In this document: piece by piece, positions 3,770 to 64,000 of the stretch
Layout: each line of letters begins with the position of its first letter
How positions within the stretch are numbered: position 1 is the first letter of the stretch
From: an uncultured Nitrospirales bacterium
Lineage (GTDB): Bacteria > UBA10199 > JADGCS01
Reading direction: 5' to 3'
NCBI GenBank assembly: GCA_964609965.1
Contig: CAZSTS010000003.1
Location: 199,537-263,536, forward strand
DNA: 64,000 bases
Position numbers and translations under genes: made by a program
The notes under the pieces: generated by a model
Database searches by the model: none
What the model saw: the letters and a program-made list of their open reading frames with translations, nothing else
Told to the model about the DNA's origin: nothing

Positions 3770-5020
3770 ATGGCAGATAATTTAAAATCTTTTTATCAGC
3801 ATCTTGATAAAATCAGTGACCGTGGTGTGCGGGCAGGTTTAGAACGCATAGAAAAGGCCATGCAGATATTAGGTCATCCTGATCGAAATTATAAAATCAT
3901 ACATATTGCGGGCACAAATGGAAAAGGAACCGTTTGCAGTTTCATTGCACAATTACTAGCGAAAAGTGGGTATAAGGTTGGTTTAACGTTGTCTCCTCAC
4001 GTAGATGACTACCAAGAGCGAATCCAGGTTTCTCATCAAACAAACTCAAAACTAGGTCTTATTCCAGAGCAGGATCTCATAGATACACATGAGGTTCTTC
4101 TGGACAAACTCCCAGATTCATTAGGGCTCACTTATTTTGAATGGGGTGTTTTGTTGGCATTACAATATTTTTCTGATCAATCAGTGGATTTTGCTGTTTT
4201 AGAAACAGGCTTAGGAGGGCGATGGGATGGCTCAAATGTCATCACTCACTCTGTTCTGTCCGGTATTACAAGTATTGGTCTGGATCACATGGATTACCTG
4301 GGTGAGACAACTCAAAAGATACTAATGGAAAAACTACAGATTGTGAGACCAAAATCAGATTTTCTCTTTTTTTCAACTGGTTCCAAAGAGGGGGATTTAT
4401 TAAATACAGCTAAGAAGTTTTGTGAGGAAAGAAATACAAAGATTCATTTTGCAAAAGAGCATTATCATTGCTTTGATCGGGAGCTTCCAAAAGATAATTT
4501 ACCAACGTGTTTTCGTGAAAATCTTTTATATGCCTTAGCAGCAGGCAAGATTTTGGAGAAACAGGGTTTTAATATTCAATACGATGATTTTTTAGAGGGT
4601 GACGTTTCATTGCCTCCAGCCAGGTTAGAAACCATATCAACTCACCCTTTGATCATTCGAGATGGAGCTCATAATGAACCAGCTCTTCGACTCTTAAAAG
4701 CATATCTTGAAGAAAAGCTTCACAATGATTATGATCTTGTTTTTGGTTGTTTGAAAAGTCGTGATTTTTTAAAGCTGGCTAAGATTGTTTTGTCCTCTCA
4801 TCAAAATTACTGGACTGAATTTGAGGCGGGTCCACGGACAGCATCCAAAGAGGTTTATGATAGGGCCAAAGCATTGTATGGAGGAGAGGTTGTATCCATA
4901 GGAAATCATTTAAAAAACCAGCTTCTTTCACGTAAAAAAAGTAGACCTGTACTCGTGTGCGGTTCGTTCTATTTATGTTCACAGTTTAAGGAAATGTGGG
5001 AAACTGGGTCGAAGGTCTAA
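3770..5020 (+). CDS. folC: Folylpolyglutamate synthase / dihydrofolate synthase (Mur ligase family)
   Basis: P-loop GTNGKGT, Mur ligase middle domain (LETGLGGRWD) and C-terminal DGAHN motif. Confidence 0.85.
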   Translation: MADNLKSFYQHLDKISDRGVRAGLERIEKAMQILGHPDRNYKIIHIAGTNGKGTVCSFIAQLLAKSGYKVGLTLSPHVDDYQERIQVSHQTNSKLGLIPEQDLIDTHEVLLDKLPDSLGLTYFEWGVLLALQYFSDQSVDFAVLETGLGGRWDGSNVITHSVLSGITSIGLDHMDYLGETTQKILMEKLQIVRPKSDFLFFSTGSKEGDLLNTAKKFCEERNTKIHFAKEHYHCFDRELPKDNLPTCFRENLLYALAAGKILEKQGFNIQYDDFLEGDVSLPPARLETISTHPLIIRDGAHNEPALRLLKAYLEEKLHNDYDLVFGCLKSRDFLKLAKIVLSSHQNYWTEFEAGPRTASKEVYDRAKALYGGEVVSIGNHLKNQLLSRKKSRPVLVCGSFYLCSQFKEMWETGSKV

Positions 5021-5066
5021 TGAGGGCTCAAGGCTCAGGGCTCAAGGTATAAGGTCAAAATTGGGG
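5008..5066. repeat. Degenerate tandem heptanucleotide array (gagggct caaggct cagggct caaggta taaggtc ...)
   Basis: Visible 7-nt periodicity directly after the folC stop codon. Confidence 0.7.
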
Positions 5067-6241: not shown

Positions 6242-6460
6242 TTATTTATAGATATACTTTTCTTCTTCATCTTCAAAAAAACTTTTGATGTATGTGAGAA
6301 CGTTCTCCCACGCAGAAGCTTTTTCTTCTCCTTGGTCGGTGTATTTTTGTGCCTCAGGGTTTTCGTCTAGGATGTATTGATCGAGTTTTGGGAGAACATA
6401 GTAATGGAGGACGAGAAGACAAACAAAAATGAAAAGTAGCCATTTTTTCATGGCTTTCAC
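6242..6460 (-). CDS. Small exported protein (72 aa) co-transcribed downstream of the metalloprotease
   Basis: Signal-like N-terminus and acidic C-terminus. Its start abuts the stop of the upstream gene. Confidence 0.4.
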   Translation of the reverse strand: MKAMKKWLLFIFVCLLVLHYYVLPKLDQYILDENPEAQKYTDQGEEKASAWENVLTYIKSFFEDEEEKYIYK

Positions 6461-8032
6461 TTACATCGTTTTAGGAGATTCTTCAATTAACTTTCTTCTC
6501 CTTTGCAAGGGAACAAATATCAATAAAAGGCTGAGTAATATAAGAAAGAGAGTGTAATTTTGAGGGGTTGCTTTAGTTTTGAGTGAACAGCTTGATAGGT
6601 TTGTTGTTTCGTCGGTAGAGTTCAGTGAAGCAGAAATATCAATCTCATCAATCAAGCTAACTAGAGCTTTATTATTAAGGGATCCTTCAAGAGGGCAATA
6701 CATGTCATCGTCATCTGCCATGTGAAAATTAGAGTTTTCTTCAAAGTAAGTGTAGCTAATTCTGTCTAGAGAGGCATCAATAGCTGTCCGTGAAGCCAGT
6801 GTGATGTCGATGTTTTGAATGTTGCTACTATTAATTCTCACAAAACTGTAATTGTCATTATCTTCGTTTGACATATCATTTTCATTATAAAATTCAGCTC
6901 TTCCTTGAATGTCTGCTAAAGAAGAATCAAATCTTGCAATGGATGTGGCAAATAATTCCGGAATTTCTTGAACATCCACTGTATAATCTCCTGAATTCAG
7001 AAGGGGAATAATGTAAATCCCTAGGTCATCATCATCTAAACAGTTTTGAATATTAAAATGGCTTGAAGTGCCATTATTTGCTGTCGTGCTCGAATTGCTG
7101 CAGATAATACTAGTGGCTTGCGAATAAGTTTCGCAGAGAGGAGATTCGTTATTTCTGATACTCACAACAAGTGTATCCATGGGAGTTCCATTTGCATCAG
7201 TGACTTCGCCAGATATGCTGTTTTCGATTTCTGCACCGTACATCCATTGCAATGTGGCAATATCGTCAGGGTGAAGGCTAATGAGATGTGCACCAGTTCC
7301 TCTGATAAAGCGAGGAAACATGGTGGGGAGATAGCGAGCATAATGAGTATCGATTGTTCCAGAGAGAATATCCTGATACATTTGGTAATGCGAGAGAGTG
7401 TGATCAAGACCTATGACGTGGCCTAGTTCGTGTACGATGATGGCGAATAGATCTATGAGTTCCAAATCCTGGACAGCGTCTGATTGGTCATTATAGTAGA
7501 GTCCATTAATGAATAGATGGGAGCTGATAATGTACTCGGGATTATTGTAGGATCCTTTGATACCTGTTAAAGATTGAGCTCCAGAAGCTCCTTCACTTCC
7601 TTTGGCTTCCAAAATTTCACCGGTATTATCAAAGCCAATAACGATGTAATTATCTCTTTGTGAGTTTGTGGTGAGGTCTGTATTTGTGGGATTGGCTTCG
7701 GCGTAGATGTGATTGCCTGCGATTGATTCCCAATTATCGATTGTAATTTCTTCTTCTTCTGTTCCAATATATTCAAATTCAATGCCTGTATCAGAAACAC
7801 TTTCCCAGATACTAAAGGCTTCTTGTACGAGGGCGAGTGATTGTTCAAAACTCAATTTGCCTAAACCCTTTGGATCAACTTTGTATTTGATTGTTTTAGA
7901 AGTGTCCCAGACAAGAGGTGTGTCTTGGCTCGCCATGTAAAGAGGATTGCCTGCGTAAACTTTTGGAGTGCCGAGCACTGAAAAGAGTACGATAAAAATC
8001 ATCAATAAGAAAATGTGTGAAAATCGAACCAT
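6461..8032 (-). CDS. Secreted zinc metalloprotease of the metzincin type with a C-terminal hydrophobic anchor and basic tail
   Basis: Signal peptide. HELGHVIGLDH matches HExxHxxGxxH. The C-terminus ends in FLILLSLLLIFVPLQRRRK, which could be a sorting signal. Confidence 0.75.
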   Translation of the reverse strand: MVRFSHIFLLMIFIVLFSVLGTPKVYAGNPLYMASQDTPLVWDTSKTIKYKVDPKGLGKLSFEQSLALVQEAFSIWESVSDTGIEFEYIGTEEEEITIDNWESIAGNHIYAEANPTNTDLTTNSQRDNYIVIGFDNTGEILEAKGSEGASGAQSLTGIKGSYNNPEYIISSHLFINGLYYNDQSDAVQDLELIDLFAIIVHELGHVIGLDHTLSHYQMYQDILSGTIDTHYARYLPTMFPRFIRGTGAHLISLHPDDIATLQWMYGAEIENSISGEVTDANGTPMDTLVVSIRNNESPLCETYSQATSIICSNSSTTANNGTSSHFNIQNCLDDDDLGIYIIPLLNSGDYTVDVQEIPELFATSIARFDSSLADIQGRAEFYNENDMSNEDNDNYSFVRINSSNIQNIDITLASRTAIDASLDRISYTYFEENSNFHMADDDDMYCPLEGSLNNKALVSLIDEIDISASLNSTDETTNLSSCSLKTKATPQNYTLFLILLSLLLIFVPLQRRRKLIEESPKTM

Positions 8033-10015: not shown

Positions 10016-10750
10016 TTATTTGTTATTTAGTCGTTTTGGCAGGAAAAGAAGGGCTAGCACAACCATGAGCCAAATAAGATCCACGCTGAGTAATAGCCAT
10101 TGTTTTAAATAGATGGTGATACAGAGACCAAAACCAAAGATGCCAAAATAGAGGCCTAGAGCAAGGAGGTTGTTCAGGCGAGATGTTTTGCATTTTTTAT
10201 CAAAGCCAAGAATATAAACCCCAACAAGATTTATGAGAAGGCTGACTAAAAACCAGCCTGCAAAATTAGCTAATGTGATATCAAAATAAAAACCAGGTTC
10301 AGGATAATAATAAATTTCTCCCAAAAACCATTGTTTTCCCATATGTGTCACAGGGTCGATGATGATATCTAAAATCGTTACGAGTAGTGCCGAAATAATA
10401 ACAACCGTGATTTTGCGCATTGTGGACTTCGAACTCCTCAGTGCATAATTTGCGGCATATAATCCTGCAAAACACATAAACACATAAGAAACCGAGTCCC
10501 AAACAGGCACTCCATTATTGAGCCATTCGCCTTGGAGGTTTTCGTACTTGTAAAAATACCATCCATAGGGAAAACCATAATTAATAGATAAGTATTCACT
10601 GAAAAAAGCTATGGTATAACCAAAGATAAGATAAGAAAACATCCATCGCCAATTGACTGCCTTAGTGGCTATTATCATATAAGATAACAAAAAGAGAATG
10701 ACGTAAGGGCGTTTGATAATGGTTGTGATGAGAAAGTCCATAAAAATCAA
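10016..10750 (-). CDS. Polytopic integral membrane protein of unknown function
   Basis: About 7 predicted TM helices. No recognisable motifs. Confidence 0.5.
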   Translation of the reverse strand: MIFMDFLITTIIKRPYVILFLLSYMIIATKAVNWRWMFSYLIFGYTIAFFSEYLSINYGFPYGWYFYKYENLQGEWLNNGVPVWDSVSYVFMCFAGLYAANYALRSSKSTMRKITVVIISALLVTILDIIIDPVTHMGKQWFLGEIYYYPEPGFYFDITLANFAGWFLVSLLINLVGVYILGFDKKCKTSRLNNLLALGLYFGIFGFGLCITIYLKQWLLLSVDLIWLMVVLALLFLPKRLNNK

Positions 10751-10822: not shown

Positions 10823-12367
10823 ATGCACGACAAATTAGAACTATTAAAACAATATAATGAGAAAGCGCTACTTGGGGGCGGACAAGCTCGTATAGACAAA
10901 CAACACGCAGCTGGAAAGATGACAGCACGAGAGCGAATAGAATTTTTGCTCGATGAAGGTTCTTTTGTAGAGGTTGATAAATTTGTGGCTCATAATTGCC
11001 AGGATTTTGGTATGGAAAAAAAGAAGGTTTTGGGTGACGGTGTTGTGACAGGGTATGGAACGGTTAACGGGCGTAAAATATTTGTGTTTGCCCAAGATTT
11101 CACTGCCTTTGGGGGCTCATTAGGTGAGGCTTTTGCTCAGAAAATATGCAAGATCATGGATATGGCAAAAAAGACCAATTCTCCTGTTATTGGTTTGAAT
11201 GATTCAGGTGGTGCTCGTATTCAAGAAGGAGTGGTAAGTTTAGCAGGGTATGCCGATATCTTTTTACGAAATGTCATGTCTTCGGGTGTTGTTCCACAAA
11301 TTTCGGTTATTATGGGGCCTTGTGCAGGTGGTGCTGTGTACAGTCCAGCCATGACTGATTTTATCATCATGGTGAAAAAAAGTTCACATATGTTTATCAC
11401 AGGTCCCGAAGTGATAAAAGCGGTTACCCACGAAGATGTGAATAAAGAAGACTTAGGTGGTGCCGAAGCCCATGCTACAAAAAGTGGTGTGGCACATTTT
11501 GTTGCTGAAGATGAGCAAGATGCCTTGAATATCGTAAAAGATGTTTTGAGTTATTCACCTTCGAGCAACTCAGAGAGAACTCCTGTTAGTGCTACTGATG
11601 ACCCCTGGGATCGTGAAGATGAGAGTTTAAATACGGTCGTCCCAAATAATTCTAAAAGGGCTTACGATGTTAAAGACATCATCACAAAGGTTGTTGATGA
11701 TGGAAGATTTTTAGAAGTCCACAAAAGTTACGCTCAAAACATGGTTGTGGGGTTTGCGCGATTTAAAGGGCGTTCTGTTGGTATTGTGGCAAATCAACCT
11801 TCTTTTTTAGCAGGGTGTTTAGATATTAAAGCTTCGGTGAAAGGGGCTCGTTTTGTTCGTTATTGCGACGCTTTTAATATCCCCTTGGTTACCTTTGTTG
11901 ATGTTCCTGGTTTCTTGCCAGGAATCCAACAAGAAGAGGGAGGTATTATTTTTAACGGTGCTAAACTTCTTTATGCTTTTTGTGAGGCGACAGTTCCCAA
12001 AATTACACTCATTCTTCGCAAGGCCTATGGTGGGGCCTATGATGTGATGAGTTCAAAGCATATTAGAGGCGACATCAATTACGCGTATCCTTCTGCTGAG
12101 ATTGCTGTTATGGGGCCTCAAGGGGCTGTGAATATTATTTTTCGTAAAGAGATAGCTGCTGCAGAGGATCCTGCTAAAACAAAAGAAGAACTCGTTGATC
12201 AGTATTGTGAAAAATTTGCTAATCCTTATAAAGCGGCTGAGCTAGGGTACATTGATGAAGTGATTTACCCTCAAGAAACGAGAAAAAAGATTGTACAGGC
12301 ATTAGAAATGCTAAAAGATAAGGTGGATAGTAATCCCAAGAAGAAACATGGGAATATACCTTTGTAG
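10823..12367 (+). CDS. Acyl-CoA carboxylase carboxyltransferase subunit (propionyl-CoA carboxylase beta / methylmalonyl-CoA carboxyltransferase 12S family)
   Basis: 514 aa with strong family resemblance along the whole length ([40 protein letters not shown]). Confidence 0.9.
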
Positions 12368-12399
12368 TGGGTTGTGGATAGTGGATTGTGGGTCGAGAA
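12365..12399. repeat. Tandem heptanucleotide array (tagtggg ttgtgga tagtgga ttgtggg)
   Basis: 7-nt periodicity starting at the stop codon of the carboxyltransferase gene. Confidence 0.65.
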
Positions 12400-12413
12400 G
12401 TTTAGGAGAAAAA

Positions 12414-16122: not shown

Positions 16123-16165
16123 GGACGTCTAGAGTCTTGCGTCTAGTGTCTAGCGTCTGGCGTGA
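16123..16165. repeat. Tandem heptanucleotide array (gtctaga gtcttgc gtctagt gtctagc gtctggc)
   Basis: 7-nt periodicity immediately after the Crp stop. Confidence 0.7.
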
Positions 16166-26577: not shown

Positions 26578-27015
26578 TTAAAACTTCTTACCAGGTCCAC
26601 CGTGAATTTCAGGATATTTGGTTTTTTGAGTTTCTGAAGCAGCTTCTTCAGCTGGAAAAAATTCTGCGCCACCATTTGCTTTAAAGGCTCTTCGAGCACG
26701 CCAGTCTAGAATCCTGGTCACGTAATCTTGAGCAACTGATCTGGATTTTGTTTTTAATACAGCAGCTAGGTCTTGAGAGGCTCTGGCTAAACACTCAGCT
26801 TGTGAGGGATCTGCTTCAGGATCCTCTTTCACTAATTTACTACGACCATAATCAATGAATTCTTTTTTTTCTACATCTTCGTTGATGCCCCAGGTAGTAA
26901 AACCTTTTCCATTGTCAAAGAGTATAAGCTCAGGATGTAGGTCGTAATAATCGGTTTCTTTACTAGCTGCTGTTTCAAACGAAGCAAAGTTTACACATGG
27001 AAATTGGTCATACAT
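26578..27015 (-). CDS. Hypothetical 145-aa protein, paralog B of a tandem pair
   Basis: Shares blocks YYD..P.L..FDNG.G.TWG.N.DVEK.E...YGR, ARASQDLA.VL.TK..SVA.DYVTRILD and FKANGGA.FFPAEEAA with the neighbour. Confidence 0.55.
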   Translation of the reverse strand: MYDQFPCVNFASFETAASKETDYYDLHPELILFDNGKGFTTWGINEDVEKKEFIDYGRSKLVKEDPEADPSQAECLARASQDLAAVLKTKSRSVAQDYVTRILDWRARRAFKANGGAEFFPAEEAASETQKTKYPEIHGGPGKKF

Positions 27016-27083: not shown

Positions 27084-27539
27084 TTACCATTTACGTGAGT
27101 TTTGTGGTGCAAAAAGTTCTGTGCCAGAATGACTAGGTTCGTCAGCTGCTTCTTCAGCAGGAAAAAACGCTGCACCACCATTTGCTTTAAATACTGTGGC
27201 TGCGTCTTTGTCTAGAATTCTGGTAACATAATCAGTGGCAACGCTTTTAGGTTTAGTTTGCAAAACCAGAGCCAGATCTTGAGAGGCCCTTGCTAAAGCT
27301 TCGGCATCTGTGACTTCTTTATCAGAATCACTAGCTTGCAATGCTTTTCTTCCGTATGCGGTAAGTTCACGCTTTTCTACATCACTATTGAGACCCCAGG
27401 TAAAAGCACCATCACCATTATCAAAGGGTTTGAGGTCAGGATTTTGGTCGTAATAACTAAGTTGCTTTTCAGCAGGGTTGTTAGCGACTTCAGGTGCAGT
27501 TTCATTTCTATATTGTGCGGATAGGGCTTCATCTAACAT
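27084..27539 (-). CDS. Hypothetical 151-aa protein, paralog A of a tandem pair; first gene of the cluster
   Basis: See paralog B. No signal peptide. Confidence 0.55.
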   Translation of the reverse strand: MLDEALSAQYRNETAPEVANNPAEKQLSYYDQNPDLKPFDNGDGAFTWGLNSDVEKRELTAYGRKALQASDSDKEVTDAEALARASQDLALVLQTKPKSVATDYVTRILDKDAATVFKANGGAAFFPAEEAADEPSHSGTELFAPQNSRKW

Positions 27540-33523: not shown

Positions 33524-33560
33524 AATTGTGGGTCGTGTGTTGTGGGTCGTGATTCGATCT
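33524..33560. repeat. Tandem heptanucleotide array (ttgtggg tcgtgtg ttgtggg tcgtgat)
   Basis: Immediately upstream of the corC-like start codon. Confidence 0.6.
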
Positions 33561-37449: not shown

Positions 37450-37453
37450 TGGG

Positions 37454-37488
37454 GCGTGGATCGTGGGTCGTAGGTCGTGGATAGAGGT
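37454..37488. repeat. Tandem heptanucleotide array (gcgtgga tcgtggg tcgtagg tcgtgga tagaggt)
   Basis: Directly after the fadN stop. Runs into a terminator hairpin. Confidence 0.65.
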
Positions 37489-40538: not shown

Positions 40539-41537
40539 ATGAATTTTAATAAGATAAAAAGTAAACTTTCCCTCATTTTTTTCATTATTGGTATTGTCCT
40601 GCTTATTTCCTTAATCAAAAAAGTGGGGTGGCACGAGGTCTTGTCTTATTTTAAAAAATTAGATTACAAGATAATCTATGTTTTTCTCTTTCCCATGACT
40701 TGGTATTCCATTCAAAGTTTTGCCTGGTGGCGGGTTCTCACTGATGATGGTGTTAAGGTTTCTCTAATTCATGTCTTTCTGACAAAAATAACAGGCGAAG
40801 CTGTAAACACGGTTACTCCTTTGAGTTTTTTTGGAGGAGACCCTTATCGCATTTATCTTTTACAGAAAAAGATTTCAAAAACAGATAGTGCCTCATCAGT
40901 GGTCATTGATCGGACAATGTATTTTTTGGGCGTGTTTTTATTGCTTTTCGTTACGTTTTTTGTAGCCTGGTTTAGGTTGCCATTGCCTGGTCATTGGAGG
41001 GTTTTATTCCCAGCCATTATTGTTTTATTTTTTATTATTTTTTTCCTATTAATAAAGATTCAGAAGAAGGGAATGTTTACGTTTATCAGTCGTCTTGTCC
41101 TGAAAACAGGTATTCAAAGAGATCGCATTGAATCGTATTCGGATAAAATAGCTGATTTAGACCAGCAGATAGGGGGGTTTTATAAAAAACATAAGCTGCA
41201 TTTTTTTGAAATCTTGGGTCTTCATTTTTCAGGGCGTATCTTAGGAGCTTTCGAAATCCTCATTATTGCAAATCTTTTGGGGCTCCCAATTGAATTCTAT
41301 CATTGTCTCTACTTGGCTTCACTCACTGTGCTTATCAACGTCATGTTTGTTTTTATTCCAGGGAGCATGGGTGTGATGGAAAGTGGTTATGGAGCTCTTT
41401 TTTATCTTCTCAACATTGCTTGGGAACACGGCGTTGCGCTTCAACTCGTTCGTCGTATCCGTGCCTTTTTCTGGATCGGCATTGGGCTTCTCATCATATT
41501 GTTTTATAAACCAAAGAAAGACAGTTTGGGCGTCTAG
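40539..41537 (+). CDS. UPF0104 / lysylphosphatidylglycerol-synthase-TM-like flippase-family membrane protein
   Basis: The N-terminal KLSLIFFIIGIVLLISLIKKVGWHEV motif is typical of this family. Lies upstream of plsB. Confidence 0.55.
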   Translation: MNFNKIKSKLSLIFFIIGIVLLISLIKKVGWHEVLSYFKKLDYKIIYVFLFPMTWYSIQSFAWWRVLTDDGVKVSLIHVFLTKITGEAVNTVTPLSFFGGDPYRIYLLQKKISKTDSASSVVIDRTMYFLGVFLLLFVTFFVAWFRLPLPGHWRVLFPAIIVLFFIIFFLLIKIQKKGMFTFISRLVLKTGIQRDRIESYSDKIADLDQQIGGFYKKHKLHFFEILGLHFSGRILGAFEILIIANLLGLPIEFYHCLYLASLTVLINVMFVFIPGSMGVMESGYGALFYLLNIAWEHGVALQLVRRIRAFFWIGIGLLIILFYKPKKDSLGV

Positions 41538-41610
41538 AGTCTAGCGTCTAGCGTATTGACCTATCAGTTATCGCCTATCGTGTCTTGTAACCTGCGTCCT
41601 GTAACCCCCT
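41530..41610. repeat. Tandem heptanucleotide array (gtctaga gtctagc gtctagc gtattga cctatca gttatcg cctatcg ...)
   Basis: Spans the stop codon and the whole spacer before plsB. Confidence 0.7.
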
Positions 41611-44798: not shown

Positions 44799-45051
44799 GG
44801 TCTTTTAGCTCTAAAACGCTTAAGTTATAGTATAGTATAACTTATACTGTGATATAAGTCAAAAAATATCAGAATTATTTTAACTTATTCAAGACACAAA
44901 AAAATCCCCGAAAGGGGATTAATAAAATAGCCCAGGGTTAAGAAAGCCTGAAAGGCTTTTCCTACCCTGGGATTGAAGATAATTTATAACATCTGATTAG
45001 ACATAAAGCTCCAAGTATTCGCTTTATGTTTTCATATTACTATCGCGCTGA

Positions 45052-45076
45052 TCTGGGCTCGTAAAACTCACCCATG
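45052..45076. repeat. Copy of the 25-nt motif CTGGGCTCGTAAA(A/G)CTC(A/G)CCCA(T/C)GC; second copy at 57500-57524
   Basis: 22/25 identity between the two intergenic copies. Confidence 0.5.
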
Positions 45077-45081
45077 CTTAA

Positions 45082-46729: not shown

Positions 46730-47236
46730 ATGGCAGAAACCAGCTTTGATCCTAATCAAACAAGAGATGTTCAGTATCCTGAAACAGCACCTGCTTCTGA
46801 ACTAGCAGTTACTTCTGAACTAGGAGTTACTTTTGAACTAGCGCCTGCTTCTGAAGCAGTACCTGCTTCTGAACCAGAGGTTGATAATGCGGTTAATAAT
46901 CCAGATGTATCAGAGTATGGTAGTTATGACGTGTCACAGTCTTTGAGTGAATGGCCTAATGGTTTTTCTTTTCCCATGCAGCTGGGGTGTGCTGCGTCTG
47001 AAAGAAATTCTACTTCCGAGCAACACTTTGCTAAAGCTCAGCTTATTTCAGTAGGTCTTGGTTATTTGGACATTAATGCAGCGAGTATTATACGTGGTGA
47101 AACGACTGTAGAGTTTAGTTCATGTTCAGGCTCAGCATTTAGTATTGATACTTATACTGGGGCGGTAAGCAAAAATGTTGCGTTGCTGCCGCTAATAGAA
47201 GTGGATCGATTGGTTGTAATTCTTGGAGAAGAGTAG
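46730..47236 (+). CDS. Hypothetical protein (168 aa) with N-terminal PASE/TSEL mini-repeats
   Basis: ORF with an AGGAG-like RBS. Internal repeat APASELAVTSELGVTFELAPASEAVPASEPEV. Confidence 0.4.
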   Translation: MAETSFDPNQTRDVQYPETAPASELAVTSELGVTFELAPASEAVPASEPEVDNAVNNPDVSEYGSYDVSQSLSEWPNGFSFPMQLGCAASERNSTSEQHFAKAQLISVGLGYLDINAASIIRGETTVEFSSCSGSAFSIDTYTGAVSKNVALLPLIEVDRLVVILGEE

Positions 47237-50843: not shown

Positions 50844-52802
50844 TTAGGTTAGTACCAATGTAATCAGAACCAACCAAAGTCCTATTAATAAATAAAAAAC
50901 ATAATGGTTAATATAGCCTGTTTGAATAATCGAGAGCGAACGGGCAAAAAACCGTGAAGCATGGGCCAAACCATTGACCATGAGACCATCGATAATTTTA
51001 GCGTCAAAAATCTTATTTAAGAAACAATCAGAAATCACTTTTATGGGGGTGATGATCAGGGCATTGTAGAGTTCATCAACTTTAAATTTGTTATAAACTA
51101 AATTGTAGAGAAAGCTTAAGCTCTTCTTAATGGGGGCTGTAAAGTTAAGGTTCTTAGTGTAGAGGCGATAGGCCATATAAAGACAGAAAACAGCCCAAGC
51201 AGTCGAGATAAGCATGAGGTGGCCTTCTTGTAAGAACGAACCGTCAATGTGATGAGGTGTGTGTTGTCCTAAAGAGTTAAGCCAATGTCCAAACCAATTA
51301 TGACCAAAGATATGGGGGAGTCCAATAAAACCAACGAGTGACGCAAACACAGCTAATATGATGAGAGGGTAAGTCATCACAGCAGGTGATTCATGGATTT
51401 TTTCTGGGTGTTTGTAGCGAGTCTCACCCATGAATGTATAGACGAAAGCGCGCATCATATAAAAGGCAGTGATGCCAGCAGTGAGCAATCCTAACCAATA
51501 GTAAATGGGGTGCTGGCCATTGGCGTACGTCATGTAAAGGATCTCATCCTTACTAAAAAAACCAGAAAACGGAGGAATGCCAGAGATAGCCAAAGTGAAG
51601 AGCAAAAACGTGATAGCTGTTATTGGCATCTTCTTCCACAGCCCACCCATTTGTCTTATATCTTGTTCATGATGGAGAGAGTTAATCACAGAACCAGCGC
51701 AAAGGAAAAGTCCTGCTTTAAAGAAGGCGTGTGTAAAGACGTGAAAGATGGCTCCCGAAAAAGCACCCACACCTAGGGCCAAGAACATATAACCCAGCTG
51801 ACTTACAGTCGAGTAGGCCAGGACTTTTTTAATATCGTACTGTGTGAGACCAATGAGCGCGGCAATAAAGGCTGTTGAGACTCCCACAATAGCAATGACG
51901 TGCAGGGTAATGGGGGCTAAGACAAAGAGAAAACTCAATTTGGCGATCATGTAAATGCCTGCTGTGACCATTGTGGCAGCGTGGATGAGAGCTGATACAG
52001 GAGTAGGGCCTGCCATGGCATCGGGGAGCCATATATAGAGAGGGATTTGAGCAGACTTTCCTGTGGCGCCAAAGAAAAGACAAAGCGTGATCAGTGTGAT
52101 ACCTGGGCCAAGTAAGTGGGCGTTTTGTGAGAGAGTGGCAATGTCCAAGAAATTCGTACTGGTTGGACTAGCATCGCCTTGGATTCCCACTAAGGTGGCC
52201 ACGATCATGAACATGCCAAGCAAAAAACCAAAATCACCAATGCGGTTCACAATAAAGGCTTTTTTACCTGCCACGGCTTTTTCTTTATCGGTAAACCAAA
52301 AGCCAATGAGAAGATAAGAACAAAGCCCAACGCCTTCCCAACCCACAAAGAGAAAAACAAGAGAGTCGGCCAGAACAAGAATAAGCATGAAAAAGAGAAA
52401 GAGATTTAAGTACGCCATGTATCTGGCATAAGCTTCGTCTTCTTTCATATAACCGATCGAATACACATGGATGAGGAATCCAACTCCAGTAATGAAAAGA
52501 AGCATGATGCTTGTGAGGTGGTCGATACAGAAGCCAAAGGAAAGAGAGAATTCTTCTAAGATCATCCAGTCTAAAAGATTGCTGGCTTTGAGGGAGACAA
52601 GATCAGGGTTTTGAAAAAGGGTTATGAATGCAAAAACTGATATGAGAAAGGCCAGAAAAGTTGAAGAACAGGCAATGAAAGATGTGATCTTAGTGCTAAA
52701 AAAGCCTTTGCCCCGAGATTGTTGAAAGGCAATGATCCCGTTCATGAAAAAACCGAGTAGAGGAAGAAGGGGGATGAGGGTTATGTATAAGCTGTTAGTC
52801 AT
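50844..52802 (-). CDS. nuoL: NADH-quinone oxidoreductase subunit L
   Basis: 652 aa with a long C-terminal extension typical of NuoL. Confidence 0.9.
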   Translation of the reverse strand: MTNSLYITLIPLLPLLGFFMNGIIAFQQSRGKGFFSTKITSFIACSSTFLAFLISVFAFITLFQNPDLVSLKASNLLDWMILEEFSLSFGFCIDHLTSIMLLFITGVGFLIHVYSIGYMKEDEAYARYMAYLNLFLFFMLILVLADSLVFLFVGWEGVGLCSYLLIGFWFTDKEKAVAGKKAFIVNRIGDFGFLLGMFMIVATLVGIQGDASPTSTNFLDIATLSQNAHLLGPGITLITLCLFFGATGKSAQIPLYIWLPDAMAGPTPVSALIHAATMVTAGIYMIAKLSFLFVLAPITLHVIAIVGVSTAFIAALIGLTQYDIKKVLAYSTVSQLGYMFLALGVGAFSGAIFHVFTHAFFKAGLFLCAGSVINSLHHEQDIRQMGGLWKKMPITAITFLLFTLAISGIPPFSGFFSKDEILYMTYANGQHPIYYWLGLLTAGITAFYMMRAFVYTFMGETRYKHPEKIHESPAVMTYPLIILAVFASLVGFIGLPHIFGHNWFGHWLNSLGQHTPHHIDGSFLQEGHLMLISTAWAVFCLYMAYRLYTKNLNFTAPIKKSLSFLYNLVYNKFKVDELYNALIITPIKVISDCFLNKIFDAKIIDGLMVNGLAHASRFFARSLSIIQTGYINHYVFYLLIGLWLVLITLVLT

Positions 52803-52897
52803 AGGTTACAGGTTACAGGCTTCAGGTTACAAGTCACGGGATACGATAATCGATAGGTTTTCAGTCGACCCACAATTCACTATCTACGATCCACTAG
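52803..52897. repeat. Heptanucleotide array filling the entire nuoK-nuoL spacer (gttacag gttacag gcttcag gttacaa gtcacgg gatacga ...)
   Basis: About 13 consecutive 7-nt units. Confidence 0.75.
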
Positions 52898-55006: not shown

Positions 55007-55089
55007 AGATCTCTATATATATACTTCTGGTTTTCGTATTCTGTACTCTAACAGGGCGGTTCATAACTAATAATATATATGATGACAAT

Positions 55090-55185
55090 TAAAAAAGAGG
55101 TCAAAGGTCTAAGGTCGAAAGTCGAAAGTCAAAGGTCATGGGGATTTCTTCTGACATTTGACCTTAGACTTTAGACTTTTGACCA
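55090..55185. repeat. Long imperfect palindrome made of two opposed heptanucleotide arrays (ggtcaaa ggtctaa ggtcgaa agtcgaa agtcaaa ggtcatg ... catttga ccttaga ctttaga cttttga cc)
   Basis: The arms are reverse-complementary over about 35 nt. Located upstream of nuoH. Confidence 0.75.
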
Positions 55186-55186
55186 A

Positions 55187-55744
55187 CTACAACTTATGCT
55201 TCTGCAATTCTTCACCCATGTATTTATCAAAAAGAATATGCCATTCAGCTGTACCAGGTACCACGTTCTTTTTAAGAGTCGCGATTTTCTTTATCACCAC
55301 ATCTTCTAGTCGGTCCCGGGTTGTCACAAATTCATTAATATCCTTTTGTATTTGACTCAATGCTTCTTCTTCATCTGTATAATTTACATCTTCATCCAAA
55401 TAGAGCTTATCATGAATCTTAAGCGCAATTGATTTAATATGGTCTTCGGAATAATTTATTTCGCTGTGATGGAGGCCTTCTTGTTTAAGGAGCTGAGTTT
55501 TGATCATTGAGAACATCTTTTGATAGTCAATTTCGCCAGACTCGATTTTATCGCGATACTGTTCTGTCATTTCTTTTGCCTTTTTGTTTATGGCATCAAA
55601 TTTAGCTGAATCAGCTAGAAAAACAGACTCAATCTTCTTTTTTATCTCAGCATCTGTTGAGATCAGCTTGATGAGCTTGTGGCCTACAAGAGAATTAAAA
55701 ATAATTTGAGAGAGTTTGACAAAGTGTTCTTTTTTGTATTTCAT
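55187..55744 (-). CDS. Hypothetical cytoplasmic helical protein (185 aa)
   Basis: ORF only. Confidence 0.4.
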   Translation of the reverse strand: MKYKKEHFVKLSQIIFNSLVGHKLIKLISTDAEIKKKIESVFLADSAKFDAINKKAKEMTEQYRDKIESGEIDYQKMFSMIKTQLLKQEGLHHSEINYSEDHIKSIALKIHDKLYLDEDVNYTDEEEALSQIQKDINEFVTTRDRLEDVVIKKIATLKKNVVPGTAEWHILFDKYMGEELQKHKL

Positions 55745-57112: not shown

Positions 57113-57171
57113 TAGATTATGAAGTTAAATCTAGATTTAACTTGAACAACCCACACCAAAAAGGAGGCGTA

Positions 57172-57387
57172 ATGGCCGTTAAAAAGAAAAAAAAGGTAGT
57201 AAGAAAGAAAAAAGCAACTAAGAAAAAAGCAGCTCCTAAAAAAAGAAAAACAGCAAAAAGAAAACCAGCTAAAAAGAAAAAAGCTGCTAAGAAAAAACCA
57301 GCTAAAAAGAAAAAAGCTGCTAAGAAAAAACCAGCTAAAAAGAAAAAAGCTGCTAAGAAAAAACCAGCAAAAAAGAAAAAGAAATAA
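57172..57387 (+). CDS. Histone H1-like Lys/Ala-rich DNA-binding protein (71 aa)
   Basis: Start set to the ATG at 57172, which has a perfect AGGAGG RBS. Composed of KKKPAKKKKAA repeats, comparable to Hc1/BpH1-type bacterial histone-like proteins. Confidence 0.7.
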   Translation: MAVKKKKKVVRKKKATKKKAAPKKRKTAKRKPAKKKKAAKKKPAKKKKAAKKKPAKKKKAAKKKPAKKKKK

Positions 57388-57412
57388 CAAAGCAATTGTT
57401 GGTAAAAAAATT

Positions 57413-57456: not shown

Positions 57457-57486
57457 CACAAGGCTCGCGCCTTGTGTTTTGTTTTA
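57455..57486 (+). terminator. Second tandem terminator hairpin (cacaaggc-tcgc-gccttgtg then ttttgtttt)
   Basis: 8-bp stem plus a T-tract. Confidence 0.65.
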
Positions 57487-57499
57487 ACTAACGCGCTTA

Positions 57500-57524
57500 C
57501 CTGGGCTCGTAAAGCTCGCCCACG
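57500..57524. repeat. Copy of the 25-nt motif CTGGGCTCGTAAAGCTCGCCCACGC (see 45052-45076)
   Basis: Sequence identity to the other copy. Confidence 0.5.
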
Positions 57525-57594
57525 CTTTTTTTTTACCCTACAATATGAGTAAGGCCTTAAATTAGTTATTGCTCCTGTCTCCACTTGTCGTTAT

Positions 57595-60455: not shown

Positions 60456-62003
60456 TTACATAGTAGGCAATACATACCCTGAATCATCAATAGTCTCTTC
60501 AATGGTTTCTATTGTATCCGAGTCAGTATCAATACCAACTTCAAGATCCATGGTTCCTGAGGCAATTGTGATGTCTAAAGTAGTCACTTCGTCTGTTAAA
60601 AGACCATCAGCATCAGTATCAAAGAGGAAGCTGCCAGTTCCGTCATATTCACAGCTTACTGTTGGTGCATAGGTTATGTAGGCTAGGTCTGAAGATACTA
60701 CACCAGTAGTGCTTACGCTCATTTCTTGATATTGAGCATATTCTACTATTGTGTGGTTAGAATTTGGTCCCGCCCAGTTACAGATAAAGCCATCGATACT
60801 ACCGTCAGTAGTCTCAACATCTTCACCATAACCATAGAAGGCAAATGCTGATGCGCCACTGTTTTCAAGCGCAAGGTTAAAGACACGAGAATTGCCATCG
60901 TGATGACCAGCTTGCCATGAAAAGGCATAGGTTCCTACTAAATCAGCAGGGTCAAAGTTTCCTGTAAAGATACTGAAGTTGTCGCCCCAGCCAGTTGGAG
61001 TAGTTGCTGAATATTTCAGACTTGGATCAACAAGTTGTGTAACAGTATCGCGACCATCTGAATCATGTTCACAGAAAACTGCGCTTCTGACTTCTTGGGC
61101 CATGTCTGTTGATGATGCGGCATCATATTCAATCGAACCGTTGTGAGTTACGTCAGAGGCAGGGCAATTTCCACCGGTGAATGAATCATTCACGAGAAAA
61201 GAGGCCACTCCTGAGTAAACAGCGGGATTAGATGTAGGAACGTGTTCCATATCAACAACAATATCATAAGAATCAGCAAGAGGTGCGTATGTGAATTCTA
61301 AATTATATGAATAAACATCATAACTGCCAACTGATGCATAACTCATGATAGCTGCTGTAAACGTTGTATCAGTGATACCAAGTGCGTTCATTTCGGTTAA
61401 GAGATTCACACTGGGATTAGTAGCGCTAGGGAGTGAAAGGCCATTGGCAATAGCTGTGCAGACCATGCTAGCTAAGCCTGATAAAGTTGCATTGGATTTA
61501 TCTTGTGCGCTAGTCATACGTGCATTGAGTTGCGCGGCCGAACAGGCATTTAAAGTAGTAGGGTCAGTTTCGAGCCAAATACCGACATCGCCAGTTGGTA
61601 ATGTTCCCGAATTTGGTATGCTTGAGCCATCAGGGTGATCTTCATAAGCAACTAAAGGGCCATAGCAATCAGCATCGGCTTCTAAAGTGAGAAAATCCGC
61701 GGGATCAAAAGTACAGGAAGCAATGCTTCCAGCAGTGAGTAGATTATTTATCTCTTCAGACACTTGTTGGTATGTAGGAACAAATGCACTTGAAGTGGCA
61801 TACTTGACACTTGAAGAAACGCTAGCAGATGTGCTTTCTGTGAGAGACAGAGGTGAAGATACTGCTAAAGTACTTGGAAAAATTGAGGACCCAGCAGAAC
61901 TTGATGTAGAACTGTCAGTAGTATTACATGCAACACAAACCATAGGTATGAGAACTATTGAGAATAGTGTTTTTAGGTATTTTTTGATGTTAAATTTTTT
62001 CAT
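60456..62003 (-). CDS. Ser/Thr-rich secreted lipoprotein (515 aa) with an Asp/Thr-rich C-terminus
   Basis: Lipobox (MVCVAC). Low-complexity S/T-rich N-terminal third. Confidence 0.45.
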   Translation of the reverse strand: MKKFNIKKYLKTLFSIVLIPMVCVACNTTDSSTSSSAGSSIFPSTLAVSSPLSLTESTSASVSSSVKYATSSAFVPTYQQVSEEINNLLTAGSIASCTFDPADFLTLEADADCYGPLVAYEDHPDGSSIPNSGTLPTGDVGIWLETDPTTLNACSAAQLNARMTSAQDKSNATLSGLASMVCTAIANGLSLPSATNPSVNLLTEMNALGITDTTFTAAIMSYASVGSYDVYSYNLEFTYAPLADSYDIVVDMEHVPTSNPAVYSGVASFLVNDSFTGGNCPASDVTHNGSIEYDAASSTDMAQEVRSAVFCEHDSDGRDTVTQLVDPSLKYSATTPTGWGDNFSIFTGNFDPADLVGTYAFSWQAGHHDGNSRVFNLALENSGASAFAFYGYGEDVETTDGSIDGFICNWAGPNSNHTIVEYAQYQEMSVSTTGVVSSDLAYITYAPTVSCEYDGTGSFLFDTDADGLLTDEVTTLDITIASGTMDLEVGIDTDSDTIETIEETIDDSGYVLPTM

Positions 62004-62204: not shown

Positions 62205-63605
62205 TTAGAGGCTATTCATGGCTATTTTTGAGCTCAGAACAGCTGATTCAATCGTGGGCGGGAGGTTTGTTTGGGTCCAATCACCGACGATACTGAAATT
62301 CTCGAGGACCTTTTGCCTTGGTCTGATCTCATCAATTTCAGGACTACAGTTTATGGTCGCATCTCTTTCAATATTAACAAGTGAATGTGTGAGTTTTGCT
62401 TCTTTCACTTTCGGATAAATTCTTTCCAGGTCCTTCATGGCAAGGGCAACAATTTCTTCTTTGCTTTTATCTAGAAAATCATAGGCGCCACTGATGGTGC
62501 CTACTACGTGCCTCGTGCTTCGTTCTTCGTTCCTCGTGCTTCGTCCCTCGTCGGACTTATTAAAGAACCAGTGGACTGTTGTAGAGGAGCTGCCGATAAA
62601 GAAATCTGTCATCACAGGACGGTCAAAGAAAAGGTTTAAGGAAACAATAGGAGAGCCTGTGAGTTGTTCGAGATTTTTAAAGGATTCATCTGTGTCGACA
62701 ATGGTTCGAGGGAGGGCATTCAAGAGAGCTCTCGGTGGCAAAGCAGATATATAGAGAGACGCCTTGAGTTCTGTGTTGTCCGCAAGATGAAAGGCCTGCA
62801 CTTTGTTGTCTAAAATACGGATTTCTTTAAGCCCAAGGTCTGTAATGATTTTATGACCACGGAGTTCAAGATACTTTCTTATAGGGTTGGCAAAAACATT
62901 TGAGAGACCTTCTTTTGGAAAGATCAAAAAACCATCTCTTTTCTGGGCAAAAAAACTGTTTATGAGGACTTGAACCAAAGAATTGGCTGAGGCAGCTTCC
63001 ACGCTGTTATTCAGGGTGGCCATTGTGAATGGTTCCCAAAAGCTGTTTATGGCTTTCTCCCCTTGCGCGTGTTTTTGGAGCCATTTTGACACTGTGAGGT
63101 TTAGGGGAGGATCTGATTTACCTGTATTAATTTTTTTGAGTTCTCGAGAAAGACCTATCAATCCAAATTTTTCTTTTATACTCATGCCGCCAAAAAACAA
63201 AATTGCTAAAGCGAGATTTAAAGGAGCGGGTAATAATCTCAGACAGAAAACATTTCTTTTAAACTTTGAGTCTAATAAAGGGACGATAGTTGGGATTTGG
63301 TATTTGATCTTGTGTTTTGCTCCTACGCGTTCAAGAAGCTTAATGGTTTCGTGGTAAGCTCCGATCATGAGGTGTTGTCCATTGTCGATTGTCTTCCCAG
63401 TTTTTTTATCTGTAAATGAGTATGTTCTTCCGCCCAAAATAGATTTTCGTTCAATCAATGTTACTTTGTAACCCAATTCATCGAGCATGACAGCTGCAGC
63501 AAGGCCTGCCAGACCTCCTCCAGCAATGAGGGCAGAGTTAGGGTGTGCCTCGTGGATCGTGCCTCGTTCTTCGTGGGGTGAGGGTTGTGGATCGGAGTGT
63601 TGCAT
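62205..63605 (-). CDS. FAD-dependent amine-oxidase/phytoene-desaturase family oxidoreductase (HpnE-like squalene-associated desaturase) carrying two repeat-derived insertions
   Basis: GxGxxG (IAGGGLAGLAAA). Family similarity and its position next to a squalene/phytoene synthase gene. Confidence 0.75.
   Translation of the reverse strand: MQHSDPQPSPHEERGTIHEAHPNSALIAGGGLAGLAAAVMLDELGYKVTLIERKSILGGRTYSFTDKKTGKTIDNGQHLMIGAYHETIKLLERVGAKHKIKYQIPTIVPLLDSKFKRNVFCLRLLPAPLNLALAILFFGGMSIKEKFGLIGLSRELKKINTGKSDPPLNLTVSKWLQKHAQGEKAINSFWEPFTMATLNNSVEAASANSLVQVLINSFFAQKRDGFLIFPKEGLSNVFANPIRKYLELRGHKIITDLGLKEIRILDNKVQAFHLADNTELKASLYISALPPRALLNALPRTIVDTDESFKNLEQLTGSPIVSLNLFFDRPVMTDFFIGSSSTTVHWFFNKSDEGRSTRNEERSTRHVVGTISGAYDFLDKSKEEIVALAMKDLERIYPKVKEAKLTHSLVNIERDATINCSPEIDEIRPRQKVLENFSIVGDWTQTNLPPTIESAVLSSKIAMNSL
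62508..62556. repeat. Heptanucleotide array (gtgcctc gtgcttc gttcttc gttcctc gtgcttc gtccctc gtcggac) inside the hpnE-like CDS
   Basis: 7 in-frame units that encode SDEGRSTRNEERSTRH. Confidence 0.7.
63545..63602. repeat. Heptanucleotide array (gtgcctc gtggatc gtgcctc gttcttc gtggggt gagggtt gtggatc) encoding the N-terminal 20 aa of the hpnE-like ORF
   Basis: The annotated N-terminus MQHSDPQPSPHEERGTIHEAH maps onto the repeat. Confidence 0.65.
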
Positions 63606-63610
63606 TCTAT

Positions 63611-64000
63611 TTAGTTCCTGGATCGTTTGAAAAACAGAGGAATGATAATCAAAGCCTTTTCAAAGTAATTCAAGGAGACTTTTTTTCTCAAAACAGGAAA
63701 GTTCTGCTTTTTCATTTTTTTGAAAATCTTAAAATAAGTCTTTGCCATCACTTTGGCAGCAATGAGTTTGCCTTCTTTATCTCGAGCAAATTCCTCAAAA
63801 GCGCTCTTGTAGTACTCCAGAGCTCTGCTGTAATAAAGCTTCATCAACTCTTTGAAGGCCTCATTATCTGTAAGATTTAAAAGCTCTTCTTCTGAATACC
63901 CAAATTTCTCTATGTCTTCCTGAGGGAGATAAACCCGGTTAAGTTTAATGTCATCCCTAATGTCTCTCATGATGTTAGTCAGTTGAAAGGCTAGACCAAG
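63611..64000 (-). CDS. Squalene/phytoene synthase family protein (HpnD/CrtB-like), 5'-truncated by the window edge
   Basis: The reading frame continues to the window edge. The conserved motif LGLAFQLTNIMRDIRDD...RVYLPQED matches the second Asp-rich region of squalene/phytoene synthases. Confidence 0.8.
   Translation of the reverse strand, partial: LGLAFQLTNIMRDIRDDIKLNRVYLPQEDIEKFGYSEEELLNLTDNEAFKELMKLYYSRALEYYKSAFEEFARDKEGKLIAAKVMAKTYFKIFKKMKKQNFPVLRKKVSLNYFEKALIIIPLFFKRSRN

Follow-up and report, generated by a model that had tools for sequence, protein, structure and literature searches.

The hpnE locus

The subject of this report is a stretch of 64,000 nucleotides (nt) from an uncultured marine Nitrospirales bacterium (NCBI GenBank assembly GCA_964609965.1, contig CAZSTS010000003.1, positions 199,537 to 263,536 of the forward strand), hereafter the window, and in particular two arrays of seven-nucleotide tandem repeats that lie within the open reading frame (ORF) of its hpnE gene. 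Positions are those of the window unless another contig is named. The main features of the locus are the following.

62205-63605, minus strand: hpnE, coding for a hydroxysqualene dehydroxylase-like flavin adenine dinucleotide (FAD) enzyme of 466 amino acids (aa) (NCBIfam, Pfam, AlphaFold, Foldseek)
63603-63605, minus strand: ATG start codon of hpnE, 5 nt past the hpnD stop codon (ORF list and sequence)
63611-64000, minus strand: hpnD, presqualene diphosphate synthase-like, of which only the 3′ portion falls within the window; stop codon at 63611-63613 (NCBIfam HpnD, Pfam SQS_PSY)
62507-62552, minus strand: internal array of about 6.5 heptamers (NACGARG, read on the gene strand), encoding S351-H366 (SDEGRSTRNEERSTRH) (Tandem Repeats Finder, lag-7 match)
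63545-63600, minus strand: N-terminal heptamer array, eight degenerate units, encoding residues 3-21 (HSDPQPSPHEERGTIHEAH) (Tandem Repeats Finder, extended register)

Judged by homology, the ORF is a bona fide HpnE whose predicted activity is the conversion of hydroxysqualene to squalene. It scores 321.9 bits against the NCBIfam model TIGR03467 (HpnE), for which the curated equivalog cut-off is 283.05, and the alignment is full-length (residues 26-464 against profile positions 2-426 of 430); Pfam recognizes Amino_oxidase and NAD_binding_8. When the protein was aligned with 26 homologs of 32-59% identity, it agreed with the family at each of the 39 columns in which the 27 sequences show no variation, and G29, G31, and G34 of the GxGxxG motif of the FAD-binding Rossmann fold occupy invariant columns. 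The AlphaFold2 model built on this alignment has a mean predicted local distance difference test score (pLDDT) of 89.9 and a predicted template modeling score (pTM) of 0.88, and Foldseek superposes it on rice phytoene desaturase 5MOG with a template modeling (TM) score of 0.85.

The ATG at 63605-63603 is the first ATG, GTG, or TTG after the upstream in-frame stop and the sole canonical start before the Rossmann motif. The next in-frame canonical start is M40, beyond GxGxxG; the N-terminal array must thus be translated if the enzyme is made, since no other usable start exists. In the AlphaFold model the first predicted β-strand begins at residue 24.

The hpnC-hpnD-hpnE operon is complete in contigs L001 to L004, where two SQS_PSY genes lie directly upstream of hpnE, an arrangement also found in the relatives L088 to L093. 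Directly downstream of hpnE lies a gene for a Ser/Thr-rich protein of 515 aa (60456-62003, minus strand) that has no family match; a protein of similar size occupies this place in relatives. No squalene-hopene cyclase turned up in the window, which was not systematically scanned for one, and the one large unassigned ORF checked (718 aa) had no NCBIfam match.

Two heptamer arrays within the reading frame

The two repeats in the ORF of HpnE are real and statistically solid. In Tandem Repeats Finder (TRF), the internal array extends over 62507-62551 with a period of 7, 6.4 copies, and 81% matches, and is also reported at period 14 and at period 21 (2.1 copies, 87% matches). At lag 7 its self-match is 0.82, with every other lag up to 13 scoring 0.14-0.47 (lag 14, a multiple, gives 0.78); none of 5000 composition-preserving shuffles, scored by their maximum over lags 4-12, attained 0.82 (p < 2e-4). 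The N-terminal array is detected by TRF at 63545-63575 (period 7, 4.4 copies, 70% matches), with a weaker register running on to 63600, and eight degenerate units can be followed up to 2 bases from the ATG, through codons 3-21; its lag-7 match is 0.57 (p = 6e-4). Some 10 nt separate the hpnD stop codon from the beginning of this array.

Read on the gene strand, the internal array consists of the units GACGAGG, GACGAAG, CACGAGG, AACGAAG, AACGAAG, CACGAGG, and a final CACG. Variation is limited to the first and sixth positions of the unit, and the ACGA core is constant in 6/6 units, through every codon phase. The two arrays resemble each other (88% identity over 24 nt) and stand in the same codon phase, being offset by 1044 nt. 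Four claims of an earlier note made from the letters of this DNA bear on these results. That the reading frame is hpnE-like is confirmed by its TIGR03467 score, and so is the lack of a canonical start downstream of the N-terminal array and before GxGxxG; the second array does encode the beginning of the protein ahead of that motif, in degenerate form and from codon 3 rather than codon 1. The fourth, seven in-frame units occupying 49 nt at 62508-62556, was right as to the array and slightly high as to the count, which is closer to 6.5 units, with S351-H366 encoded by the 48 nt at 62508-62555.

The internal array is open in all six frames, and among the arrays of the window only the two in hpnE lack stop codons in each of the three gene-strand frames. 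Two antisense ORFs that run over them, 62494-62754 and 63545-63880, were considered as genes and rejected, as they are open because the array unit contains no stop codon on either strand. The arrays and their surroundings fold no better than shuffled sequences (z = 0.34, -0.30, 0.75, and -1.12), and no match to Rfam at the gathering threshold was found anywhere in the window.

A dispersed population of heptamer arrays

The arrays in hpnE are part of a larger population. The window contains nine strong period-7 runs and between zero and two runs of each other period from 4 to 12, while 30 dinucleotide-preserving shuffles of the window yielded a mean of 0.2 strong period-7 runs and a maximum of 2. 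TRF, our own scan, and a search for dispersed repeats together bring the total to about 16 arrays (at 5025, 12365, 16126, 25473, 33527, 37450, 41530, 41559, 44444, 52803, 52865, 53723, 55098, 55152, 62507, and 63545). Their density is about 10 times that in 1.34 Mb around the hpnE genes of 80 unrelated genomes, a control set made up of other HpnE-bearing genomes with at most 38% best-segment tblastn identity among the matches listed. Beyond the ends of the window, the same scaffold holds four further arrays in 17 kb. The arrays most relevant to the comparison with hpnE are listed here.

37450-37487, plus strand: intergenic CGTG-type array (families D3 and D6) immediately after the stop codon of a fadB-like gene; shares GTGGATCGTG with the N-terminal array of hpnE
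33527-33559, plus strand: intergenic CGTG-type array (family D3), 4 nt from a gene start
12365-12396, plus strand: intergenic array of the related TAGTGGA/TTGTGGG type (D3, I4), overlapping the stop codon of a carboxyltransferase gene; 88% complementary to 52865-52896
52803-52896, strand not assigned: composite intergenic chain of heptamer arrays in the nuo operon (I1, I4), from just past one stop codon to the start codon of the next gene
55098-55183, minus strand: inverted pair of GGTCAAA-type arrays forming a hairpin, followed by a U-tract (TRF, RNA fold)

Several unit families recur at more than one locus (D3, D5, D6, and D11), as do inverted pairs (I1, I2, I4, and I7), and copies at distant loci are 79-90% identical. 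Besides both hpnE arrays, the CGTG-type family (D3, D6) includes intergenic arrays at 12359, 33527, and 37455 as well as one on the reverse strand at 52865; NACGARG on the gene strand of hpnE reads CYTCGTN on the other strand, a unit without runs of G. The 10-mer GTGGATCGTG occurs nine times in the window with at most one mismatch, vs. 1.8 occurrences expected. A GGTCAAA family has copies at 44444, 53723, and 55099 and a reverse-strand copy at 55150, a CGTCTAG family has copies at 16123 and 41528, and the units met in the window besides that of hpnE include GGTCAAA, CGTCTAG, AGGTTAC, GAGTGAT, GGCTCAA, and CGTGCCT. Within one composite element, the 48 nt at 41559-41606 are 79% complementary to 52811-52858; together with the 88% complementarity between 12365-12396 and 52865-52896, this indicates that the arrays behave as dispersed mosaic elements and not as products of local slippage. 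The spacers 41528-41606 and 52803-52896 are each filled by chains of different heptamer arrays.

All 14 arrays of the window outside hpnE are intergenic or overlap gene ends, and in ten of them the array either covers a stop codon or starts no more than 17 nt past one. The part of the nuo chain at 52803-52831 abuts the ATG at 52802 and leaves no space for a Shine-Dalgarno sequence. One candidate for a further array inside a coding sequence, 12365-12391, was rejected and counted as intergenic, as that gene probably starts at the ATG at 12413, preceded by AGGAG and heading a signal-peptide-like sequence. The hairpin formed by the inverted pair at 55098-55183 has a folding energy of -32.6 kcal/mol (z = -4.18), matched by 0/200 shuffles, and is followed by UUUUUU; the predicted fold resembles that of an intrinsic terminator, here built from heptamer arrays. 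The surrounding region (55085-55195, minus strand) directly follows the stop codon of a DUF507 gene.

Two of the arrays beyond the window do lie in coding sequence. Just past the end of the window (contig L002, positions 7144-7176), an array of 4.7 copies of ACYARCT (ACTAGCT, ACTAACT, ACCAGCT, ACCAGCT, and ACCAG) begins 4 nt after the hpnC stop codon within an N-terminal extension of hpnD, of which the Pfam domain begins at residue 37; one frame is open, and the sole ATG lies upstream of the array. On the other side, 9.7 kb beyond the start of the window (contig L094, positions 1907-1924), a TGTAACC array lies past the Pfam domain in the C-terminal tail of a threonine-aldolase-like ORF (Beta_elim_lyase), and this tail may be the read-through of a formerly intergenic array. 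The ORF continues past the array into a hydrophobic tail of 20 residues.

The arrays in the protein and in relatives

The internal array is situated between the invariant residues W346 and F348 and a conserved H-x-x-G-V-I-S-G-A strand, and in the AlphaFold model it links strands 346-349 and 365-372. Every one of the 26 homologs has a non-conserved loop at this position, of 8-25 residues (median 13, vs. 17 here), and rice phytoene desaturase 5MOG aligns through the whole stretch with zero gaps. The internal array is therefore not a net insertion and sits in an ancestral variable loop. At the other end of the protein, 28 residues precede the first Gly of GxGxxG, vs. a median of 12 and a range of 7-23 in homologs, so that the excess over the median is 16 residues, or about seven heptamers; by alignment, the N-terminal array is a real extension, about 16 residues long. 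When pLDDT is averaged over blocks of 10 residues, the model is weakest at residues 1-20 (49 and 47) and 351-360 (54), and no other block falls below 77. Residues encoded by the NACGARG unit are all hydrophilic (R, E, S, T, N, H, G, and D), which fits an exposed loop or tail.

The suggestion of the earlier note that the segments are tolerated surface loops is therefore essentially right, in that both lie at low-confidence sites, one in a variable loop and the other at the N-terminus. Its further claim that both are insertions holds for the N-terminal array, which exceeds the homolog maximum of 23 residues, and fails for the internal one, for which homologs possess an equivalent loop.

Heptad periodicity at both hpnE sites is specific to this genome. 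The closest relative, L088, is syntenic and has an HpnE of 59% identity; its own copy of the same loop is encoded by a period-8 array, GCYCCCYC x4 (4145-4174), with a lag-8 match of 0.75 that was reached by 0/5000 shuffles. A weaker period-8 pattern, TCGCNNNN x5, is present in the same loop in L091 (about 4728-4768; match 0.52, p = 0.02), and in both relatives the period-8 DNA encodes Pro/Ser-rich peptides. In L089, L090, L092, and L093 the loops are non-periodic and the N-termini short, and close relatives are without arrays at the 5′ end of hpnE. From these alignments, the HpnE loop seems to host non-triplet repeats repeatedly in this clade. L088 has in addition a perfect array of 4.3 copies of CGCACAA in the N-terminal coding region of hpnD (2268-2297) and an inverted pair of heptamer arrays after the downstream gene (6277-6341), similar to the pair at 55098-55183 of the window.

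Origin and present role of the arrays

The explanation favored here, which we hold to be probable, is that the two segments of HpnE are tolerated copies of a heptamer-array family dispersed over the whole genome, one placed in a variable surface loop and the other in a captured N-terminal extension, and that neither acts as an on/off switch. In this bacterium the arrays as a rule occupy short intergenic spacers, usually from a stop codon or just past it. The N-terminal array most likely derives from such a junction array, between the hpnD stop codon and the HpnE core, that was captured by the ORF and would now be translated as a disordered extension, since the sole usable ATG lies upstream of it. 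We infer that neighboring ORFs can capture junction arrays in this way because three cases fit, namely the N-terminus of hpnE, that of hpnD in L002, and the C-terminal tail in L094. The internal array would have overwritten, or arisen within, an ancestral β-hairpin surface loop that varies across the HpnE/phytoene-desaturase fold, with the net length of the loop staying in the normal range.

A heptamer array passes through the three codon phases every 21 nt, and only units free of stop codons in all frames would be expected to persist inside a gene. The hpnE arrays could persist because NACGARG is stop-free in any frame. Such a filter would account for which arrays endure within genes, and the two hpnE segments would be clean examples of how an array becomes protein, one being captured at a cistron junction to form an N-terminal extension, the other taking the place of a variable surface loop. 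Their present role would be that of fixed passengers, selectively neutral and tolerated.

Several observations weigh against this explanation. The ACGA core of the internal array is invariant whatever the codon phase, which one would not expect of a repeat that decays under pure neutrality; it hints that DNA or RNA is constrained here, or that the array was copied recently from a template already degenerate. Of the four arrays met within coding sequence in about 81 kb, three are concentrated in the hpnCDE operon. As for the invariance of the arrays among contigs, which is described below, the contigs sampled are nearly clonal (99.7-100%) and span little evolutionary time, and assemblies are consensus sequences, blind to minority length variants.

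A more active part for the arrays is conceivable, if rather unlikely. They could be tiny mobile or templated elements that remodel coding loops by active copy-and-paste or by gene conversion, or else regulatory binding sites, in a weaker variant only those at the 5′ ends of hpnD and hpnE. The process would seed intergenic junctions, could overwrite permissive coding segments in frame, and would be a recurrent source of disordered protein segments. Mobility or templating is suggested by the 79-90% identity of distant copies and by the two hpnE copies, alike at 88% and in the same codon phase, as well as by the constancy of ACGA through the codon phases and by the periodicity of one and the same HpnE loop in three related genomes (7 here, 8 in L088 and L091). 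Should the arrays prove mobile or regulatory, hpnCDE would be a convenient operon for testing this, as three of its arrays are translated.

A purely regulatory function has a somewhat smaller chance of being correct. The arrays would be cis-acting elements recognized by a hypothetical multimerizing protein of the Csp, S1, or CsrA type, which would adjust how cistron junctions are translated or how stable the mRNA is there. At the 5′ ends of hpnD and hpnE, the arrays would thereby fix the ratio of the three squalene-pathway enzymes, and that they are translated into peptide would be incidental. The same idea was proposed by MacGregor (2015) for TAACTGA repeats (PMC4679880), and the placement of arrays at cistron junctions agrees with it, including at 52803-52831, where the array takes the room of a Shine-Dalgarno sequence. 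So do the recurrence of unit families at many loci and the state of the hpnE arrays, which are unstructured, purine-rich single strands and hence accessible (z = 0.34, -0.30, and 0.75), while the terminator-like hairpin (z = -4.18) makes a role at the RNA level plausible for some arrays. Because the invariant ACGA core, independent of codon phase, leaves room for a constraint on DNA or RNA, a regulatory function retains this modest weight. It is opposed by the wide differences between units (among them GGTCAAA, CGTCTAG, CGTGCCT, and AGGTTAC), which speak against a single specific binder, by the internal loop array, which is 1 kb from any junction, and by the close relatives that do without arrays at the 5′ end of hpnE.

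Repeat perfection and variation among contigs

Non-triplet repeats within a gene invite comparison with contingency loci, in which slipped-strand mispairing would here shift the frame of hpnE and toggle squalene, and possibly hopanoid, synthesis in sub-populations. The earlier note had proposed such phase variation. It is drawn to mind by the 7-nt unit within coding sequence, not a multiple of three, by the position of one array near the 5′ end, and by the heptamer tracts that are phase-variable in some pathogens (PMC8262952). A contingency locus would also be expected to have a long tract of identical units, a polymorphic number of units, and a repeat confined to the gene that is switched. 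Perfect tandem repetition extends over at most 15 nt (2.1 units) in the internal array and over at most 12 nt in the N-terminal one, with 81 and 70% matches overall, vs. 11-24 copies at hmw1A (PMC8262952). Arrays of the same family are found at no fewer than four intergenic sites, where the frame is irrelevant.

Variation in unit number was judged from contigs encoding HpnE; two scans of a metagenome collection for length variants of the internal array, one by flank-gap-flank and one by an exact 35-nt flank, gave no match, this genome being absent from that collection. The identical 466-aa HpnE was found on all 24 contigs examined (from 32 index blocks; sources JGI, ENA, and Logan), it stands alone in its 90%-identity cluster, and the best 120 homology matches listed include no near-identical HpnE with a truncation or frameshift. 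Over 6.7-11.8 kb, seven DNA loci match the window at 99.7-100% identity, and no heptamer array, coding or intergenic, changes length in any of the at least seven arrays they cover, as far as near-clonal consensus assemblies can reveal. These loci differ by one unit of a 33-nt repeat, one single-nucleotide polymorphism (SNP), a 1-nt deletion (L003), and a 12-nt in-frame deletion in hpnC (L004). The 33-nt repeat, near 57261, differs by one unit between otherwise identical contigs. No other repeat was seen to vary in length, and this one case shows that such polymorphism can be detected in the material.

The 33-nt unit makes up the near-perfect tandem repeat on which a Lys/Ala-rich basic protein (MAVKKKKKVV...PAKKKKAAKKK; 57171-57392, plus strand) is built. 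The 1-nt deletion in L003 (window position about 58264) splits a CoA-transferase gene, and the in-frame deletion of hpnC in L004 corresponds to position 6326 of L002.

Phase variation of hpnE is thus very improbable, the proposal failing three of four defining tests through its degenerate units, its lack of polymorphism, and its membership in a genome-wide family. HpnE is moreover a housekeeping enzyme of a lipid pathway and belongs neither to the surface nor to the restriction-modification genes. The perfect (CGCACAA)x4.3 tract in the hpnD N-terminus of L088 could slip and, coming from the closest relative, counts in favor of switching; it is a better candidate for slippage than any array of the window. 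The adjacent hpnE protein of that locus is represented on 3 contigs only. That the whole pattern is an artifact, produced by mis-assembly, to which short repeats are prone, or by a decaying hpnE pseudogene with a chance open frame, as the least conserved position of both segments in the protein might suggest, can be dismissed with near certainty in view of the identical sequence in independent JGI, ENA, and Logan assemblies and of a full-length ORF that exceeds the HpnE cut-off, keeps 39/39 invariant columns, and is modeled at a mean pLDDT of 89.9.

For the annotation of bacterial genomes, it follows from this case that non-triplet tandem repeats inside a gene should not automatically be read as a phase-variation switch. 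The perfection of the repeat, its variation in the population, and its distribution over the genome are to be checked before a switch is called.

Other features of the window

Some repeats of the window are of other kinds. A non-coding sequence of 60 nt occurs twice, at 45020-45079 and 57468-57527, with 80% identity (CGCYTTRTGTTTT...GGGCTCGTAAARCTCRCCCAYGCTT) and no Rfam match at the gathering threshold. The adjacent ORFs at 26578-27015 and 27084-27539 (minus strand; 146 and 152 aa) form a pair of tandem paralogs; their matching DNA blocks, 506 nt apart, are 76-84% identical (D4 and D8). An 18-nt tandem repeat at 46786-46874 (plus strand; 4.9 copies, 77% matches), whose period is a multiple of three, lies within a 169-aa ORF (46730-47236). 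Lastly, a gene of the PF04240 (Caroten_synth) family at 10016-10750 (minus strand) adjoins murJ, as seen in L094 (19756-20481).

Comparison with known heptamer repeats

Heptamers are an over-represented class of long simple sequence repeats (SSRs) in many bacteria, for which polymerase slippage has been proposed, according to work known here as cited in PMC4692102 and PMC4679880; it is through Rehm et al. (2015) (PMC4692102) that a 2007 survey is quoted for the over-representation of heptamers. The present genome adds one more uncultured marine lineage to the short list of bacteria with heptamer-peppered genomes. By its MurJ homologs (65-67% identity), this lineage falls roughly near metagenome-assembled genomes labelled 'Deltaproteobacteria bacterium' and near 'bacterium K02(2017)'.

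The closest parallel is offered by the TAACTGA repeats of the Beggiatoaceae (MacGregor, 2015; PMC4679880), which are also known from some Cyanobacteria and Bacteroidetes and are mostly intergenic, just upstream of start codons; the few copies within genes encode either the extreme ends of proteins or, in an RpoC-like protein, a surface loop that is variable (PMC4679880). As in the Beggiatoaceae, tandem 7-nt units are scattered here over the genome, mostly in intergenic DNA beside start codons or over stop codons and also within operons, and the stop-codon content of the unit dictates the place and orientation that are tolerated. On the other hand, several unit families coexist here, the arrays are more degenerate, the host belongs to an unrelated uncultured lineage, and one copy interrupts a conserved enzyme domain midway.

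Heptameric long SSRs have likewise been described as GGGAATC in Xanthomonas, as GGGGAYT in Nostoc PCC 7120, and as the short tandemly repeated repetitive (STRR) sequences of Calothrix and Nostoc (Rehm et al., 2015; PMC4692102). They share with the arrays of the window the enrichment of period 7, the intergenic location 0-50 bp from stop codons or over them, the presence of some inverted pairs, and an intragenic minority (PMC4692102). The Xanthomonas and Nostoc units are G-rich and form G-quadruplexes, whereas the hpnE units (NACGARG or CYTCGTN) are without G-runs, and length variation between related strains is reported for the former and was not seen here, where only near-clonal contigs were compared.

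The ATCTTTC heptanucleotide SSR upstream of hmw1A and hmw2A in Haemophilus influenzae is phase-variable (PMC8262952, PMC12721329), and for the hmw1A tract this has been established experimentally, its length differing between isolates (PMC8262952). It has in common with the hpnE arrays a 7-nt unit and a location in or near the 5′ part of a gene; the hpnE arrays differ from it in their stretches of at most 2.1 perfect units and in the absence of variation among the contigs compared. In Borg extrachromosomal elements, tandem repeats are reported to create intrinsically disordered protein regions and to be rapidly evolving and recently formed (PMC9879509). The hpnE arrays resemble the Borg repeats in that tandem repetition of nucleotides puts hydrophilic, disordered segments into folded proteins, and they depart from them in being degenerate and in having 7-nt units that stay in frame only as 21-nt blocks.

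Taken by their behavior, the arrays have every feature of dispersed heptameric SSRs, namely an excess of period 7, a mostly intergenic location near stop or start codons, and recurring units. The units of the cyanobacterial STRR1-3 families are CCCCAGT, TTGGTCA, and CAACAGT. With NACGARG as their unit, the hpnE arrays are members by sequence neither of these families nor of the TAACTGA family; they are an analogue of both in behavior.

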